From the NCBI GenBank assembly GCA_963727775.1, contig CAVSHB010000001.1, positions 288,001 to 352,000 of the forward strand: a DNA stretch of 64,000 nucleotides. Reading direction: 5' to 3'. This stretch comes from an uncultured Nitrospiraceae bacterium (GTDB taxonomy: Bacteria; Nitrospirota; Thermodesulfovibrionia; Thermodesulfovibrionales; SM23-35). Under the pieces are notes generated by a model. The model had not been told where the DNA came from, searched no databases, and saw only the letters and a list, made by a program, of their open reading frames with translations. Positions within the stretch are counted from its first letter, which is position 1; each line of letters opens with the position of its first letter. Below, piece after piece: positions 20,872 through 57,466 of the stretch. Both the position numbers and the translations under genes were made by a program.

Positions 20872-20986
20872 TTATGAAAAAAGCCCTACTCTACGCATTA
20901 TCCTGTGCTTCCAAGTCTTATTATTTCTTGACATGTTAACCGCAATATTTAAGACTTCATCTTTACACATCTAGGCGAGGACTTCA

Positions 20987-21163
20987 ATGCACAGACAGCG
21001 CATCGGTCACATCCGAGTGAGCCCCTTTGAACAAAATATAGCTCGTCAGCTTGACAATATCGCCTTAGATAAAGTGTTCTCGGACAAAGCCTATGGGAAG
21101 GACACTCGACGACCAGAGCTTGAAGCTCTAATGCAATTTGTTAGGCAATGGGATACTAGTTGA
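20987..21163 (+). pseudogene. Tn3-family (Tn21/Tn501-like) resolvase N-terminal fragment
   Basis: MHRQRIGHIRVSPFEQNIARQL...DKAYGKDTRRPELEALMQFVR; truncated at 58 aa. Confidence 0.75.
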
Positions 21164-21240
21164 TATAATAAATCAAGCTTCGGATATTTTTGGAATGAAG
21201 TGTAGTCGTGAGAATGCTTGAGTGAGGATGGTATACCCTG

Positions 21241-21476
21241 ATGGAACTAATGATGCGTGAGCCGTATGGAGGAGGAATATGGCTGTTCCTATTTCTCCTT
21301 TTCTGTACACTTATTGTTATCGGCATTATTTTGGTAATCGTGTGGATTGTGAGAAAGCATGGAAAACATACAAACAGCCCGCAGAAGAGACCGCCCTCGA
21401 CATCTTGAAGAAGGGACATGTCAGGAGAGAGATCAACAAGGAAGAATATGAGAGGATGAGAAAGGATGTCTTTTAG
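21241..21476 (+). pseudogene. Small TM + SHOCT domain protein, frameshifted
   Basis: TM segment in one frame, ETALDILKK...EINKEEYERMRKD in another. Confidence 0.6.
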
Positions 21477-21480
21477 GCTA

Positions 21481-22617
21481 GTGTAGTGTCCCACTAACGG
21501 CTTTACAATGAACGACCTTTTCCAAGATGGCATCGACCTTTTTCGTCCAGACAAACGGCTTGGGACTCTCGTTGTTGATCTGGATGAAGTCTTCTATTGC
21601 CGCAACAAGTTCCGAAACACTGCGAAAAACTCCACAGCGAATGCGTTTCCGTGTGATCTCTCCGAACCATCTCTCCACCAGATTCAACCATGAGGAACTG
21701 GTCGGCGTGAAATGAAGGTGAAATCGGGGATGTTTTTTCAGCCATGCTTTAACCTTGGGATGGTTGTGCGTACCATAATTATCCAGAATCATATGGACGC
21801 CCAATTCCGAGGGTACGGTGGCGTCGATCTGTCGCAGGAATTTCCGAAATTCGATGTTGCGATGCCTCGGATAACAGGAGCCAATAACTTTTCCCTCCAG
21901 CACATTCAACGCCGCGAACAGACACGTAGTGCCATTGCGCTTATAGTCATGGGTCATGGTTCGGCAGCGCCCTTTCTTCATCGGCAAGCCGGGTTGTGTC
22001 CGATCCAACGCTTGAACTTGGCTCTTCTCGTCAACACACAGCACCACCGCCTTGTCCGGCGGATTCAAGTACACTCCCACCACGTCCGTCAGTTTTTCAA
22101 CAAACCGCTTGTCCTTGGATAACTTGAATGTCTCAACGCGATGAGGCTGAAGACCGTGCGCGTCCCATATACGTTGCACCGTGGACTTGCCGACTCCCTG
22201 AGCCCTTGCCATCGAACGCACCGACCACTGCGTGGCATCGCGAGGTGTCGTGTGGAGAGTCGCTTCGACAATGGCCTTCACCCGGTCCGGCGGAAGAGCC
22301 TGTGGACTCGGGCCATGGGGTGCGTCCTCGGCCAATCCCATCGGTCCATGCTCTTCGAAACGTTTGCGCCATTGGATTACTGTCGGGCGGGAGGTGGACA
22401 GTTGGGCCGCGATAGCGTTGTTCGACAAGCCATCCGCCGCCAAAAGACAAATACTCGCTCGCAGTACTGCTCGCTGAGGGCTGGTCTTAGCCCGTTTCCA
22501 AGCTTCCAATGTCCTGCGCTGCTCTTTTGTCATCTCCAGAACTTCTGCTTTTTCCCACATGCCATATAGCTTACCATGACAACTAATCATTGTCCAGCTT
22601 TTAGTGGGACAGTACAC
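21481..22617 (-). mobile_element. IS630-family element with intact transposase
   Basis: 19/20 inverted repeat including TA flanks; CVDEK, LDNYGTH and SWLNLVERWF motifs. Confidence 0.92.
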
Positions 22618-22704
22618 TAGGAGCCTGTCAGACTTTCAAGATTTTTGGAAAGTCGATCTCCTGAGAAGCCCTAGAATCGCTTAGTAAATAAAGTCATTGC
22701 GACA

Positions 22705-22736
22705 CCACAGGGCGTTGACCCTGTGGGTAGCTGACA
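22705..22736. repeat. IS200/IS605-like terminal hairpin remnant
   Basis: CCACAGGG-CGTTGA-CCCTGTGG followed by GTAGCTGAC. Confidence 0.45.
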
Positions 22737-22887
22737 AGGACCTGTGCCAAGAGCACAGGGTGTTATTTTTTTTATAAAAGAGGAATATTGAACTGAAAAG
22801 ATCTCTCTTCTTGTATGAATTCATATCATGCACTCTACCAATGACATTGACAAAAGAATTTATAACCTATGAAATATATCGTACTAA

Positions 22888-24165
22888 GTGCCCTGCTTCA
22901 TAAATTCGGTCACGTATTTCCCAGAGCTATGCGGCTAATGGAAAATGTACTATTGTAACCCTGCTTATCTTTTTGAGCAATTTGCCAAGATCCTGTCTTG
23001 TAAACTTCCACTCGAACGGCGTGGCGATTTTTTCATAATATTGTTCGAAGGAAATCAATCGGTTTTCAAGGGCCGAAAGCGAAGGGAAGGCATTAGGGGT
23101 CAGGGCTTTCCTTTGCAGGATCGAAAAATAGATTTCGATCTGATTCAGCCAGCTGGCATGAACTGGCCCATGAACAAGCTCCAGATTCGGATGCCTTTCC
23201 TTCAGTCGTGCGACCGACTTTACGCCGCGATGTGAGGAACCGTTGTCGACAATCCAGAAAACCCGTCTGGCTTCGTTATAGGGCGATTGTGCCATAACCT
23301 GCATCACTAATCGGTCGAATGGTGCAATCCCACTTTTTCTCTCGCAGCGTCCGAAAACTTTTGCCCGGTGAACATCGAGTGCAGCGATATATGCCCACGC
23401 ACCGCATCGTTTGTACTCATGTTCCACCCTCATGGATGCACCTTGCGCTGGTGGCAGTGTTGGATGACGCCGAGATCGGGCCTGAATGCTTGTCTTCTCA
23501 TCAGCCGATAGGACAAATTCGTCGTCTTTTAGGCATTTTTTATTCCAAACCCTCTCGTAAAGGTCGAGAATACGACCAGCTTTCGCAGTAAATTCAGGAT
23601 CACGAGGAAAAATCCAGCAACGATGCTGCCACGGACGGATAGCATCTTCATTGAGCCAACGCCATACTGTGCAATCACTGATAGTAGAGACTAGTCCAGT
23701 CCGACGAGCCTCGCGAGTAATATCCGCTACACTGAATCGTGAGAGTGGGAGATTGTGTGTAGCAGGCAATTCGCAGGCCAGTGCCTTAATGCTCATGACC
23801 AGCTCTGGGGGAAAAAGCCCGAGGCCGACCCGAGCGAGGGCGTTCTTCAATACCGTGCAACCGTTCTTCAAAAAAACGTTTTCTCCACATGCTGACAACC
23901 TCCCGCCGCGTATTCAAACGGTGGGCTATTTCGTCGTTCGTTAACCCATCCGCGGCCAATAGAATCATCTTGGCGCGAAGTACTTGATAATACGGTAACG
24001 TATATTTTGTGGCACATCTCATCAAGTGTTCCACTTCCTCTGGCGTCAGCCTTATGCTATATGGACTTTTCCTTGGCATTGATGACCTCCTTACGATCAA
24101 TCATGCCATATTCGATTCTATTTAGCAAGCTAATATTACGTTAGTGTAGTTATGATATTATGTAC
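22888..24165 (-). mobile_element. IS630-family element; transposase in two overlapping ORFs (24079 to 22927), likely programmed frameshift; ends approximate
   Basis: HTH ORF ending RPRAFSP, slippery TTTTTCCCCC, then ADEKT, DNGSSH and SWLNQIE motifs. Confidence 0.85.
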
Positions 24166-52187: not shown

Positions 52188-52436
52188 TCAGTATCGATCC
52201 GGAGGGCTATTGCACCTGGAAGGGAGCAAATACTCAATCGTGACCATTGTGCCCTTCTTGCAAACCGGGCAGGTATTGATATCGATACCGTAGATTCTGA
52301 GCAACTGATCCTGCCAGGTCTCTGATTTTTCTTCTTCTTCTTCTTTTGTTTCGGTTTTACAACTGCCGATGAGCTTACGGCATAGCGCGATGTTGTCTTT
52401 ACGCTTTCTGTTTGCGAGGAGTCCGAAGTGCCTGAT
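52188..52436 (-). pseudogene. IS91-family transposase C-terminal fragment
   Basis: IRHFGLLANR...CPVCKKG continues FVRIR from the other side of the RIT. Confidence 0.88.
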
Positions 52437-52535
52437 TTATGTTATATATTCACTTATGTTGCGTCGTTTGTGAAAGGCCTTGTTATTGCACAATGTCATC
52501 GTTAACGACACAACATAAGTAAATCCCTCTTCGGG

Positions 52536-53531
52536 TTAAAGTGCTTTTAAGAATGCCATCAACCCCGGCTGATCTTTCCACCGTCTTGATTGCTCTGAAG
52601 TAAATATCTCACAGTGGGCAAGTGCCTTTGCCTTCATTTCGAGATCGACCTCAGCATAGACATTTGTGGTATCTAGCGACACATGCCCCAGCCATGCACG
52701 GATTGTATTAATATCCACACCTGCGCGAAGAAGGTGAACTGCGCAGGAATGACGAATTATATGTGCACTGACTCTTTTCGTTCTCATTGAGGGGACTTTG
52801 TTGCTTGCTTTGATAACATAACGCCTAACGAGGGCATGAATGCCGAAGCGAGTGATTGTCTGCCCCCGACAGTTGAGGAAAACCTGTTCGCTATCCTGGC
52901 GATCGGCAATGAGAGTGCGTAAAGTATTGGCTGTTAAAGACCATAAAGGACAGATTCGTGTCTTGCCTCCCTTGCCTTTAATCTTGACTGAAAGCGAATA
53001 ATCCAGGTCGAGATCGTCTACAGTCATATTCGCAGCTTCATGGGCGCGGGCGCCAGTATTGTAAAGAAAAAGAAGTACGGCATAATCTCTAAAGCCTTGT
53101 TTGGTGGAAGTAACGGGAGCATTAAGCAGGGCATCCATTTCTTGTTTGTCGAGATAAGACATCGCAGCCTTTGCAGTTTTTTTGAAAGGGATAGCTCTGA
53201 TCTGTCCACACCAGATGATGTGTTCCGGACATCGTTCGCCGATAAAACCGGCGAGGGCGTGAATTGCGGCAAGGCGCTGGTTGCGAGTGGCTATAGAACA
53301 GGATCGATGCTCCTCTATATAAAGCAGAAAAAGACGAATTACCTCAGGGGATATATGCTCTACAAGCAGCTTGTCTATAGGTTTTCTGACCTTCTCAGCG
53401 ATGAAAGGGAGCATCAAGGCCAGAGCATCGCGATAACTGGATTGTGTATTTAGCGACAGATTACGCTCTTCCACCAAGTATTCCATAAGGAAGCGTCGCA
53501 CCCAATATCCGATAGAAGTTACGTTAGACAT
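52536..53531 (-). CDS. RIT tyrosine recombinase C
   Basis: YNTGAR, HIIRHS and WLGHVSLDTTNVY motifs. Confidence 0.92.
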   Translation of the reverse strand: MSNVTSIGYWVRRFLMEYLVEERNLSLNTQSSYRDALALMLPFIAEKVRKPIDKLLVEHISPEVIRLFLLYIEEHRSCSIATRNQRLAAIHALAGFIGERCPEHIIWCGQIRAIPFKKTAKAAMSYLDKQEMDALLNAPVTSTKQGFRDYAVLLFLYNTGARAHEAANMTVDDLDLDYSLSVKIKGKGGKTRICPLWSLTANTLRTLIADRQDSEQVFLNCRGQTITRFGIHALVRRYVIKASNKVPSMRTKRVSAHIIRHSCAVHLLRAGVDINTIRAWLGHVSLDTTNVYAEVDLEMKAKALAHCEIFTSEQSRRWKDQPGLMAFLKAL

Positions 53532-54468
53532 GATTCACGTCCGATAGAACATAATGTTCAAAACGCAAATTTGCTTCCCGCAAAAGATCAGGAGTCATGC
53601 TCAAATAGCATTGGGTCTCCGCCACATCAGTATGGCCCAAATAGGTTGATAATTGAGGCAGCAAGCGCTGGACATCAGCGCCTTCCCGGTACCAGGCTTC
53701 AAGACGGTGAACTGAAAAAGTGTGACGAAGGTCGTGAATCCTGGGATAGTATCGAGTGCCGTCCCGGCGAGGCATCCCGGATAGGTTTCGCAAACGACTG
53801 AAAGTTTTTTGCATGCGGCCATAGGATAAAGCGTGGCCAGTGCGTGTGGCAAAAAAGGCGGAATCTTCCTTAAGTCGGCAGGGCAACAGTCGCCTTTTTC
53901 CCAGATAGGAGTCAAGGTGGTCAGTTAACCGAGGGCCGATGGGTACGAGACGTGTCTTATAGAATTTGGTATTGCGCACTGTGATAAGGCTATCCGAAAC
54001 GTTAACATCAGCAATCGTTAGAGAAAGCGCTTCGCTGATACGAAGGCCTGTTCCATAAAGGGTAAGCAAAATGGTTCGGAAGGTGGTTGCCTGAAGAGGA
54101 CTTATTGGGGATTTAAGCGAGTTGGTAGCGGAAAGGAGGCGGTGCAGTTCCTCGGTGGTGTAAATATATGGTTCCAGAGTCGCCGGACGTTTAGGTACCA
54201 TCTTTGGAAGCGGAGACTTGTCGATATGACCATGGGTCAGAGCAAAGCGATAGAAACCACAGAGGACTTCATACTTCCGGTGCCAGAAGGTAGTGATCGG
54301 ACCTTCACCTGCAAGGAATGCTGCTGCAGTATCGGGATTAACTTCTTCGATCTCTATATTGCCCATAGCTTTGCAAAAAGATCTGAGTACCACAGCATCA
54401 GACCGGTAACACATACCAATGGACTGTTTTAGCGACACATACTCGGTAACAAGTTCTGAGAGTTTCAT
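53524..54468 (-). CDS. RIT tyrosine recombinase B
   Basis: TGLRISE, TKFYKTRLVP, HDLRHTF and LSTYLGH motifs. Confidence 0.92.
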   Translation of the reverse strand: MKLSELVTEYVSLKQSIGMCYRSDAVVLRSFCKAMGNIEIEEVNPDTAAAFLAGEGPITTFWHRKYEVLCGFYRFALTHGHIDKSPLPKMVPKRPATLEPYIYTTEELHRLLSATNSLKSPISPLQATTFRTILLTLYGTGLRISEALSLTIADVNVSDSLITVRNTKFYKTRLVPIGPRLTDHLDSYLGKRRLLPCRLKEDSAFFATRTGHALSYGRMQKTFSRLRNLSGMPRRDGTRYYPRIHDLRHTFSVHRLEAWYREGADVQRLLPQLSTYLGHTDVAETQCYLSMTPDLLREANLRFEHYVLSDVNHV

Positions 54469-55706
54469 TCCAGCCCTCCCATATCAAACTTAGCTACCTC
54501 GCGAAGACCTGACAGATTCACCTTGGCATAGATCCTCGTGGAGAGAGAACTTCGATGCCCTAGGTGATCGCCGACCTCCTTGAGGGAGAAGCCCTCGGCA
54601 ACCAGGTGGGCGGCGCACGCATGCCGCAATGAGTGGGGCCCATGATGGTGAGTGCGTATCCCGAGCTTCACCATTCTGTTACTGACCACAGGATAAAGTG
54701 CTCCTAATGAAAAAGGACGATATGGGGGCAAGAGAGTGAGAAATATCTCTCGATATGAAGAGTGGGGACGCACTTCCTGTAAATAGCGGATTATCGCGTT
54801 GCCTACTATTGGGATCAATGGGTATGTTTGTCTTCCTCTCAGCTTAACTCGGGGTACCGACATAAGTCTCTGTTCCCAGTCGATATCGTCAAGCCTGAGA
54901 GTTGCTACCTCAGTTGATCTCAACCCATAGATCGCAAAAAGCATCACGATGGGTTTGTCTCGTATGTCACTGGCTTGATCTGTCTCCATGCTCTCTATCA
55001 AGAGTCTCACGTTTCCCCAAGATGGTCCCGACGGCAATTGTTCTTGGGCAAAGATACGAGGGCCACGTATATCGGGGGCGATTGAAGACGAACACCACCC
55101 CCGTGAAGCCGCGTACTTGAAAAAGGCCTTCAGCGCGGTCGCCATGTGTTTAACCGATATGCGACAATTGCCCTTGTCACCGTAATGGGTAAGAAACGCG
55201 TCAATATCTTTGAGGCAAACGGCTGAGATATCACAACTCCGAGTGCCATACCAGCGTAGAAACCGTTCAACGTAAGAGCAGTTCCCTCGGATAGTCTGAG
55301 AAGTGAACCCTCGTTCGTTCTTCATCCATGTCCTGAAATCTTCAAGCAAATGACCAAACGGAATGGAAGTATCTTCTCTCCAACAGCCCAAAAAACGTAG
55401 CCACGATCTTGCTGCATTGACAAAGCGACTGCGAGTACAGTGCGGATTAAGCGCTTTTCCCCAATATCGTTCCCGTTCTGTCCATCCTCGGGCGACAGCT
55501 TCGACCTGATTCAGGGTTACTCCGTTTTCAAAAGAAATACGTAGCTTCTTTGCGACCCATAAAAGTTCTCGCGCAATGTTCTGTAAAGTCGAGAGAGAAT
55601 ATCCTTCTTGCTCGCAGTGCTTAAGATAACGCTCCCTCTCCTCTTTGTACGGGGCCTTCTTGTGACGGGATAGAATTGAGAGTTTTGTGTAAAGCTTTTC
55701 AAACAT
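54465..55706 (-). CDS. RIT tyrosine recombinase A
   Basis: YGLRSTE, HSLRHA and LGHRS..STRIYAK motifs. Confidence 0.92.
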   Translation of the reverse strand: MFEKLYTKLSILSRHKKAPYKEERERYLKHCEQEGYSLSTLQNIARELLWVAKKLRISFENGVTLNQVEAVARGWTERERYWGKALNPHCTRSRFVNAARSWLRFLGCWREDTSIPFGHLLEDFRTWMKNERGFTSQTIRGNCSYVERFLRWYGTRSCDISAVCLKDIDAFLTHYGDKGNCRISVKHMATALKAFFKYAASRGWCSSSIAPDIRGPRIFAQEQLPSGPSWGNVRLLIESMETDQASDIRDKPIVMLFAIYGLRSTEVATLRLDDIDWEQRLMSVPRVKLRGRQTYPLIPIVGNAIIRYLQEVRPHSSYREIFLTLLPPYRPFSLGALYPVVSNRMVKLGIRTHHHGPHSLRHACAAHLVAEGFSLKEVGDHLGHRSSLSTRIYAKVNLSGLREVAKFDMGGLE

Positions 55707-55843
55707 GACCGGACCTCCTCTAATAGAGACTTTCCAGCCATATAACGGCAATTACTTATGTGTTGTCAAATCAAAAATAATCATTGCAAATTAAGAAAAT
55801 TGACTGACTTCACAACATAAGTGAATACATAACATAAATCAGG

Positions 55844-55863
55844 TTATGTGTTTAAGCACATAA
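55844..55863. repeat. 20-bp palindrome beside the RIT end
   Basis: TTATGTGTTTAAGCACATAA between ATCAGG and CCTGAT. Confidence 0.85.
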
Positions 55864-56454
55864 CCTGATGCGCACAAATCGATGCGGAAGCACATGAAGA
55901 AGGAACCTTCTTATGAACTCATCGGCCTTAAGAGTCATGATCTTTTGTTTATCACCATCGGCATAGTCCCGCCAGCGGAAGGAAACATTGCCGTCTTCAA
56001 CGTTTAGGACACGATTATTACTGATAGCAATCCTGTGGGTATATCTGCCCAGATACTTGAGGACACCCTCGGCGCCGTCAAAAGGCGGCTTGCAATATAC
56101 AACCCACTTCTTATGGTAGAACTGTCCTCTGAACACCTCAAAGGTTCCGGGGTCTTTAAGATGACGGATACCGCCAGGGAAGATAAGATCACCTGATTCA
56201 AACCTGTTTTTGAGATGGTCCAGGAACTTGCCCCTGAACAATGAGGACATAACCCTTACAGGCATGAAAAAACCTTTCCTGCACGATACCCAATGTTTTC
56301 CATCAGGTGACAATCCGCCGCCGGGTACGACACAGTGAATATGGGGATGATCCATAAGGTTTTGTCCCCAGGTGTGAAGGATGCCGATAAAGCCTGTATG
56401 TGCGCCGAGGTGTTTCGGATTATTGGAGAGCTCCATAAGTGTCTCGGAGACTGC
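55864..56454 (-). pseudogene. IS91-family (HUH/Y2) transposase, central fragment
   Basis: LHTWG, HPHIH, YLGRYTHR and RRFLLHVLP motifs; N-terminal part deleted. Confidence 0.9.
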
Positions 56455-57127
56455 CTGAGCGTATGTGGGCTTACTGGTTTTGTTATGCCGGCGCGCTCTT
56501 TGGCCTCAACGAATATCTGTCGTATTGTACTTAGACATACATGAGCTCCTTCCTTTTGTCAAACAACCAGTCTTTCGGACGATATTCTCTCCAGTATTGC
56601 CTCAGACACTCAAGAGCGGTCTGAGACAGGATGGTGTAACGGTCTTTGCCCCCCTTGCCTTGCTGAACTCTTACCATCATCCGCTTGCTGTCGATATCGC
56701 TTACCTTAAGGTGTGCTGTTTCGCTTATCCGGAGGCCTGCAGAATAGGTAATCGTCAGGATCGCCCGGTGCTTTAGATTCTCCATGACGGAAAGCAAAGT
56801 CTTGACTTCTGCCAAATCCAGAACCACAGGAAGTTTGTTTTTCCCTCTGGGACAATGAATCTTCTCCACGACCTCTTCCCGTTTTAACGTGTGCTTATAT
56901 AGAAACTTCAAACCCTGGTAATAAAACCGGTATGTCCCCTTGGCCAACTTCCGTTCGTTCAAAAGATACAGCAAATACTCTCTGAGTTCCTTCTCTCCAA
57001 GTTCCTCCGGCGACTTGCCGAAGTACTTTGCATAATTGCTTACTTCCCTCAGATAAACCTTTTGGGTCTTGGGGGTAAGTCCCTTCAACTGAAGCTCTGC
57101 CAACATCTGTTCTCTCAATGTGCTCAT
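56455..57127 (-). pseudogene. Tyrosine integrase (SAM-like N-terminus), frameshifted and truncated at HTLR
   Basis: KLPVVL, YSAGLRISE and GKGGKDR motifs; frameshift after WLF; fused to the transposase fragment. Confidence 0.85.
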
Positions 57128-57466
57128 ATCCAATCTCCTTTGAATCGATATGCGCCGACGAAGGCCGACGGGGAAACAAAGGAAATTGTAAAAAGACTTC
57201 GATTGTTCAACAAGGGGGGGAATAGCAGACTAACTTCTACAACTCAGAAAAAGGTCTATCTTATCCAGAAAAGGCTCACGCCTCGTTAACCACCGCGCAG
57301 CGGTTTAGTTCTTCGGTACAAACTCTTCATGAGTTGCCGCTTCGCATAAATGTGGAGCTTGCTATATTGTTGTAGAGTTAGGCCTTGTTAAAGAAGGCTA
57401 TACTCTTTCTTGATTCAGACCAATGTGCGAGTTGGTTAAATCCAAACCAAAGAAAGGAGTATAGCC

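Follow-up and report, generated by a model that had tools for sequence, protein, structure and literature searches.

The 64-kb stretch of DNA analysed here (positions 288,001 to 352,000 of contig CAVSHB010000001.1, assembly GCA_963727775.1, from an uncultured Nitrospiraceae bacterium; hereafter the window, to the whole of which all positions refer) carries at 52431..55869 an intact RIT element, as judged by every defining feature that we tested. This element, a trio of tyrosine recombinase genes with a 20-bp palindrome beside one end, sits in the Ile-Arg codons of an IS91-family Y2 transposase gene. We consider it probable that one conservative crossover, performed by an RIT that carries the palindrome and mirror-image core sites along with it, explains the entire layout, including the occurrence of both orientations and the tolerance of mismatches. 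This scenario starts from features observed directly, namely the anatomy of the element, its recurrence, a mirrored second copy, the co-variation of its spacers, the exceptions to this co-variation and the empty site.

Read on the plus strand, GAAGTG of the target is followed by CCTGAT (52431-52436), the ritC-side end beginning with TTATGTTATATATTCAC, the three recombinase genes, the ritA-side end finishing with GTGAATACATAACATAA, ATCAGG (55838-55843), the palindrome TTATGTG TTTAAG CACATAA (55844-55863), a second CCTGAT (55864-55869) and GCGCAC of the target. The layout CCTGAT-[RIT]-ATCAGG-palindrome-CCTGAT, given in an original prediction made from the sequence alone, matches these letters and coordinates exactly. 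With the left 6-mer given, each of the two other 6-mer positions would match it by chance once in 4096. The window contains the pattern CATAA-N6-TTATG a single time, where 0.05 occurrences are expected, and 5 of 100 shuffled sequences had at least one. A repeat search returned a 44-nt terminal inverted repeat (52431-52474 with 55800-55843, 84% complementary) and a 32-bp palindrome with arms 55838-55853 and 55854-55869 (94% complementary). It is also important to note that the motif AYTTATGTKD has eight matches in the window, compared with 1.73 expected, and that six of the eight form mirror-image sets of three arms, one set at each end of the RIT. In the ritC-side terminal inverted repeat (52437..52474, plus strand), the terminal arm TTATGTT is accompanied by a second arm 17 bp inward (52452-52461), and the motif search added a third, inverted arm on this side (52511-52520); the ritA-side terminal inverted repeat (55800..55837, plus strand) has arms at 55830-55839 and 55813-55822, and its third arm lies at 55754-55763.

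The analysis supports the view, already expressed in the original prediction, that the 6-mers are crossover spacers of tyrosine-recombinase core sites. The left 6-mer, identical to the right one and the reverse complement of the internal one, can be read as the crossover (overlap) region where the target meets the ritC-side end, and the right 6-mer as the crossover region where the palindrome meets the target. The internal ATCAGG is the spacer of one complete core site, AACATAA-ATCAGG-TTATGTG, and the palindrome itself reads as two back-to-back, end-like, predicted recombinase-binding arms belonging to the mobile unit. We also considered the palindrome as the crossover site, with 7-bp arms around a 6-bp centre, and rejected this option, since both the junctions and the letters shared with the target fall outside the palindrome.

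The interrupted host gene lies on the minus strand. Its N-terminal part (55870..56436) matches Pfam Y2_Tnp with an E value of 3.8e-62 over profile positions 1-171 of 183, and the open reading frame (ORF) as called continues to a stop at 55852, within the palindrome. The C-terminal part (52191..52430; translation ..HFGLLANR..CPVC..) has no Pfam match alone and is joined to the N-terminal part in a related metagenome contig. A single 6-mer, which supplies the Ile-Arg pair, restores the Y2 frame (...V R I R H F..., minus strand). The empty target GAAGTG-CCTGAT-GCGCAC, reconstructed in the original prediction with one CCTGAT, has no match in the window at up to two mismatches and was not found in the organism's own genome, but outside evidence backs it: in run X1, a Logan contig with a depth of 20.8 passes straight from 52431 to 55865, leaving out 3433 bases, and represents the empty target in a related copy of the gene. 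Loose ends in runs X1 and X2 yielded further uninterrupted Y2 copies with a single CCTGAT or TCTGAT, and a more diverged copy has other letters. Among these sequences we found no palindrome-only allele of the Y2 target; the empty sites that we did find have no palindrome.

A mirrored sister copy of the element provides the most instructive comparison. The organism's own genome contains two full RIT copies, 99.85% identical, plus a third left junction, with which contig C1 ends (C1 and C3 being contigs of this genome). The second copy (C3:215054-218465, with identity measured over 3413 bp) occupies the same position, with the same flanks, in a second copy of the host gene. In the orientation of these flanks it reads GAAGTG, CCTGAT, the inverted RIT, ATCAGG, TTATGTG CTTAAA CACATAA, TCTTAT, GCGCAC. 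The RIT is inverted, while the palindrome has kept to the GCGCAC side, with a flipped centre (CTTAAA, where the window has TTTAAG). An inversion of the trio relative to the same flanks, anticipated by the original prediction, is therefore seen between C1 and C3. The right 6-mer of the C3 copy, TCTTAT, differs by two changes in 6 bp, compared with two changes in the next ~580 bp and four in the 2365 bp of the left flank. Point mutation would require this same density of changes, and we rejected it as the origin of TCTTAT; this density is rather the signature of a spacer brought in through recombination. The C3 ritA is split by a 1-base deletion (C3:217091-218373) into parts corresponding to residues 1-87 and to residues 74-428, the latter with a TGA, so that the C3 copy is probably defective and the window copy intact. 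As for the two host copies, their homology falls to 78% from about 56449 onward.

How could such an arrangement arise? Since the direct 6-mer repeat is the outermost pair, the logic of conservative site-specific recombination implies that the inserted, mobile unit would consist of the RIT, one 6-bp spacer (X') and the 20-bp palindrome. In a joined, circular form of this unit, each face of the palindrome would pair with one RIT terminus across a 6-bp spacer, giving two complete core sites (arm, 6 bp, arm) of the same sequence and opposite orientation. The reverse complement of AACATAA-ATCAGG-TTATGTG is, letter for letter, the joint of the palindrome, CCTGAT and the left terminus. A single crossover between either of these sites and the target 6-mer would produce the order target, X, RIT, X', palindrome, X, target, in which the element would supply two of the 6-mers and the target the third, and no bases would be duplicated. 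The choice of core site would set the orientation of the RIT, and the asymmetric spacer would fix the side of the target at which the palindrome lands. Spacer identity would be preferred, not required, and a mismatched exchange would leave the former spacer of the element at one junction. The inverted RIT of the C3 copy, with its flipped centre, is what the model predicts from use of the other core site. Three parts of this model are inferred: the joint of the circular form, the order in which strands are exchanged, and the assignment of Rit proteins to arms. Its three predictions (a fixed side for the palindrome, linked flipping, and one 6-mer in empty sites) all agree with what was found. 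The original prediction had stated that a single crossover does not explain three copies of the 6-mer; one is enough, provided that the palindrome and its two spacers move as part of the element. From the multi-step mechanism proposed there, the 6-mers, the tracking of the target by the spacer and the inversion hold, while the multiple steps themselves are not needed.

Close relatives of the element allowed us to follow the spacers further. The metagenomic locus L145 carries an RIT that is 95.1% identical over 3404 bp and is inserted in the same codons of a diverged Y2 gene, and its 6-mers have all changed together, to TCTGAT/ATCAGA/TCTGAT. The original prediction had set a constant ATCAGG, regardless of target, against itself; the inner 6-mer is not constant, being ATCAGA in L145 and occurring in 16 distinct forms among 28 RITs, and tracks the local target. 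In the 89.4% identical RIT of L094, the palindrome is present at both ends and two diverged Y2 N-terminal halves face each other across the element, which makes this locus either a recombinant or an assembly chimera. In the window, in C3, in L145 and at both ends of L094, the palindrome is found towards the N-terminal part of Y2.

A wider survey started from an alignment of 28 RitA homologues and used one genome per species, the best 80 of 322 relatives being kept as loci. Of these 80, ten were too short downstream, one had no inverted repeat and 44 had a credible repeat pair spanning 3300-3520 bp; the layout was parsed as flank, Y1, palindrome, Y2, RIT, Y3, flank, where Y1 to Y3 are the 6-mers. 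By script, 28 of the 44 RITs have a palindrome of exactly 20 bp at one end only, 19 at the ritA end and nine at the ritC end. The inner 6-mer (Y2) is a perfect reverse complement of Y1 in 16 of 27 RITs, with one mismatch in seven, two in two and three in two; given these imperfect cases and the TCTTAT of C3, the internal spacer is not always the reverse complement of the local 6-mer, which the original prediction had proposed to check. The far-end 6-mer (Y3) is identical to Y2 in 11 of 27, differs by one letter in another 11 and by three or four in five, and all three 6-mers agree in 9 of 26 RITs. In finished isolate plasmids, the palindrome stands beside the ritA end in all four examples examined; by eye, the three 6-mers are identical in a Cupriavidus plasmid and differ by one to three letters in the other three.

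All 13 loci of a second target family have the palindrome on one and the same side of the target; it faces the ritA end in seven of them and the ritC end in six. The palindrome centre flips along with the RIT in all four informative families (own genome, L065/L068, L070/L072-73 and L094). In L065 and L068, which represent one element in one genome, the ritA end is always beside TGTGCG and the ritC end beside GATGAG. Such exceptions, in which the spacers stay with the ends, as well as the foreign 6-mer in C3, would agree with an exchange between spacers that differ.

Many RITs from unrelated phyla occupy one conserved site, ..GGATCTCC-CGCATC-CGGCTTTCGG.. (L012, L022, L025, L034, L052, L053, L065, L068, L075, L151 and others). 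This site adjoins a group II intron reverse-transcriptase gene in a Mesorhizobium plasmid, and other RITs sit in a recombinase-like reading frame containing ..ENRLVAR... RITs seem to home into other mobile elements.

The assignment of the window element to RITs rests on its genes as well as on its ends. All three genes are located on the minus strand. The recombinase in the ritC position (52536..53531, 331 aa; Pfam Phage_integrase, E 3.4e-32) overlaps ritB by 8 bp, and that in the ritB position (53524..54468, 314 aa; Phage_integrase, E 1.4e-23) overlaps ritA by 4 bp. The ritA-position gene (54465..55751), also matching Phage_integrase, is a 428-aa ORF starting from TTG; its true start is likely near 55706, with homologues of ~414 aa beginning at the invariant M16. 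All three recombinases have the catalytic residues R, K, H-x-x-R, H and Y, which do not vary between their catalytic domains. In RitA, Pfam recognised one SAM-like domain (residues 135-219) and no match in residues 1-130; RitA proteins of RITs have two successive core-binding domains, and Rit proteins are placed among the 'simple', Xer-like tyrosine recombinases, according to the available part of PMC8138268.

An RIT is defined, in the portion of Van Houdt et al. 2012 (PMC3414803) that was available, by adjacent ritA, ritB and ritC genes on one strand with overlaps of 4-8 bp. The elements of Cupriavidus metallidurans CH34, of pHG1 and of sphingomonads show the same one-strand ritA-ritB-ritC order with short overlaps, terminal inverted repeats, a possible catalytic motif R..H-x-x-R..Y in all three proteins and multiple near-identical genomic copies, and in no defining feature does the window element differ from them. 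RitA homologues are numerous, 5100 at E <= 1e-20 among the 8000 candidates scored. A tblastn search with RitA matched 197 plasmid records, the best being Cupriavidus sp. KK10 (47% identity over 97% of the query), and in P. phymatum pBPHY02 the matching gene comes first in an annotated trio. Among the genomes of 41 relatives, a search for close RitA sequences found none beyond the own genome and a partial match (64%) in G037.

To look for further forms of the element, we may turn to the palindrome itself, for which a scan of metagenomes gave 69 loci with 62 distinct occurrences. Twenty-five of the 62 stand beside an RIT end, and their flanking 6-mers are perfect complements in 14 cases, with one mismatch in five, two in five and five in one. 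By pattern, 34 others have no RIT end and represent a mixture of solo palindromes and probable chance matches, 11 of them with perfect complements. The remaining three (L118 start, L098 and L120) are fold-back contig ends and were set apart as artefacts; the start of L118 was considered as a circular joint and rejected as the fold-back of a single end. Some metagenome contigs, such as L087/L130, L119, L132, L139, L096 and L110, contain palindromes that have no RIT beside them. By eye, each inspected solo palindrome connects the palindrome-side flanks of two different genes, not the halves of one target (L130 versus L121, L090/L105). The forms with two palindromes, with none and with a solo palindrome resemble the reciprocal outcomes expected when RIT copies recombine with each other, among which short-read chimeras are possible.

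Several observations weigh against the single-crossover model or limit its reach. CCTGAT occurs 2802 times in the own genome and yet all three known junctions fall within one gene family; the choice of target must then depend on something beyond the spacer, which the model leaves unspecified. The RIT of L145 has the same orientation as that of the window and the opposite palindrome centre, so the RIT and the palindrome can flip independently, and the simple model needs a further inversion for this locus. The predicted circular joint, in which each face of the palindrome would adjoin an RIT end, appeared in none of the 62 occurrences, and in the available part of Nielsen et al. 2017 (PMC5737581), RIT DNA was enriched after exonuclease treatment, whereas circle junctions were not found by paired-end mapping. 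The public runs (X1, X2, X3 and X5) were examined as Logan contigs, and the best run shares 0.19 of the sampled words with the own genome. Chimeric joins across the 3.4-kb repeat are possible wherever a pair of junctions comes from short-read metagenome contigs. Finally, 16 of the 44 loci were not parsed by the script and were judged by eye, eight of them showing no palindrome. The others include L036 and L038, which have a palindrome and are cut by a contig end, L054 and L055, which have one and were parsed separately, L007 and L074, where the palindrome is present at both ends and the flanks are inverted copies of each other, and L023 and L026, cut at a contig end. In L019, which has no palindrome, both flanks are homologous far-side flanks in inverted orientation.

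Among the other explanations, the best surviving one, though unlikely, follows the original prediction in assuming that the palindrome and its spacers are installed first as a docking site, beside which the trio then integrates and inverts in situ between the inverted 6-mers. This would account for RITs in both orientations beside a palindrome that is fixed on one side of the same target, and both the palindromes without an adjacent RIT and the independent flipping implied by the pair of L145 and the window can be cited in its favour. However, an RIT circle lacking the palindrome and entering a resident spacer would leave direct repeats, while the RIT is flanked by inverted 6-mers instead. The flipping of the centre with the RIT in each of the four families indicates that the palindrome is no fixed part of the target, the empty sites lack it, and the solo palindromes that we inspected join palindrome-side flanks of two occupied loci. 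With no palindrome-only allele of the target found either, the notion of an adaptor installed in advance fares poorly.

A slightly weaker case, which we regard as improbable, can be made for the 6-mers being fixed parts of the element, that is, extended inverted repeats whose match with the target reflects strict site-specificity with no exchange of spacers. The inverted repeat, as aligned, indeed extends through the 6-mers, and the inner spacer TCTCGG is constant in all three copies of one element (L070, L072, L073), in which the outer ones vary. Related RITs have similar spacers (CCTGAT, TCTGAT, CCTGAA), and RIT unitigs in three metagenomes keep only 'AT' beside each end. Against this stand the near-identical elements whose 6-mers differ: the window and L145, C1 and C3, L043 and L044, L039/L040 and L038, as well as a single-recombinase element that has TCACAG in one copy and TGGCTG in another, 99.8% identical one.

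Least likely of all is a mechanism resembling that of telomere resolvases, with staggered cuts about the palindrome axis producing covalently closed hairpin ends and a linear, exonuclease-resistant intermediate: it was proposed in the available part of Nielsen et al. 2017 (PMC5737581) from palindromic end repeats (imperfect, of 47 and 51 bp), exonuclease-resistant RIT DNA and the failure to find circle junctions, and the joint predicted by our own model is itself a long near-palindrome, but the junctions with the target lie at the 6-mers beside the palindrome and not at its centre, the presence of a palindrome at one end only in most RITs (28/44) makes two hairpin ends impossible from one copy, and the 4-bp centre, which lacks self-complementarity in 15 of 28 RITs, gives no sign of being an exchange region shared with targets.

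The single-crossover model might extend beyond RITs. A repeat of 2.6-2.9 kb is present in the own genome in three copies that are 94.7-99.8% identical (C1:~20940-23534, C2:~570935-573883 and C3:~339430-342025; loci L153-L155), and it encodes a single recombinase-like ORF of ~287 aa with a weak match to RitA. Its end consists of ..CAGCGGCTTAGTTCAA, a 6-mer, a 20-bp TTATGTG..CACATAA palindrome and an inverted 6-mer, and the 6-mers of the 99.8%-identical copies are TCACAG/CTGGAA versus TGGCTG/CAGCCA. The motif CAGCGGTTTAGTACA also abuts the ritA end of the RITs in L008, L020 and L032. This similarity suggests that the smaller elements share the RIT type of site. It is tempting to suppose, as a tentative proposal that we hold with rather less confidence than the model itself, that RITs and the smaller single-recombinase elements ending in the same type of palindrome form a wider class of tyrosine-recombinase transposons. 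Members of such a class would have a double, mirror-image attachment site allowing a single intermediate to enter in either orientation, would tolerate mismatches that leave a record of the former site, and would home into conserved codons of rival mobile elements, namely of IS91 transposase, group II intron and serine-recombinase genes, while recombination between their copies would generate the two-palindrome, palindrome-free and solo-palindrome forms and rearrange genomes.

Upstream of the Y2 gene, the window contains another tyrosine-recombinase ORF (56531-57133, minus strand, 200 aa). It covers positions 3-101 of a 172-position catalytic profile and appears to be truncated or frameshifted.

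RITs are widespread, and their movement has never been reproduced according to the 2012, 2017 and 2023 papers: the available parts of PMC3414803, PMC5737581 and Idola et al. 2023 (PMC10214605) call it unproven or untested, the last of these listing both target specificity and movement as not tested. In these same parts, the arrangement X-RIT-X'-20-bp palindrome-X, the fixed side, the mirrored arrangement and the travelling spacers are not described, although Ricker et al. 2013, which lay outside our literature search, may hold parts of this picture; the search returned no paper on the RIT mechanism beyond those cited here. The anatomy, the mirrored copy and the relatives together pin the exchange to the 6-bp spacers beside the palindrome and predict an exact intermediate joint. 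The model also explains entry in both orientations, and together these points make the mechanism directly testable. RITs also disable the genes of other mobile elements at conserved codons. Overall, we conclude that the window element is an RIT, an already known kind of element, and that the model of its integration is well constrained and testable.

It remains to place this element among better-known systems. The core site of the XerC/XerD-dif system, and of elements that integrate through Xer, consists of two inverted binding arms around a 6-bp central region. The RIT core site has the same build, but the recombinases are encoded by the element and not by the host, the target has no recognisable arms, and the two core sites of the element share a back-to-back pair of arms. 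Conjugative transposons of the Tn916 type use 6-bp coupling sequences and produce no target duplication, and the 6-mer of a former site can reach the new junction. Unlike junctions of this sort are likewise seen in the C3 copy (CCTGAT/TCTTAT) and in L065/L068, and a single 6-mer is present in the empty sites. Like Tn916, Tn554 and the strand-biased circularizing elements (SEs) are tyrosine-recombinase transposons with 6-bp coupling sequences; as described in the available part of PMC10214605, they share with the window element the lack of target duplication, the 6-bp crossover and the possibility of carrying over a former-site 6-mer. Nevertheless, the window element is not a member of any of these groups: it has three recombinases, long inverted repeats and a palindrome that supplies a second complete site, and it has no counterpart of TnpC, Srap or Xis, a set of features not known from those groups. 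The Tn554 family in particular is characterised by TnpA, TnpB and TnpC and by the lack of terminal inverted repeats, while here we found three recombinases and a 44-nt inverted repeat. By analogy, then, the window element would work like Tn916, Tn554 and the SEs, yet it belongs to none of them.

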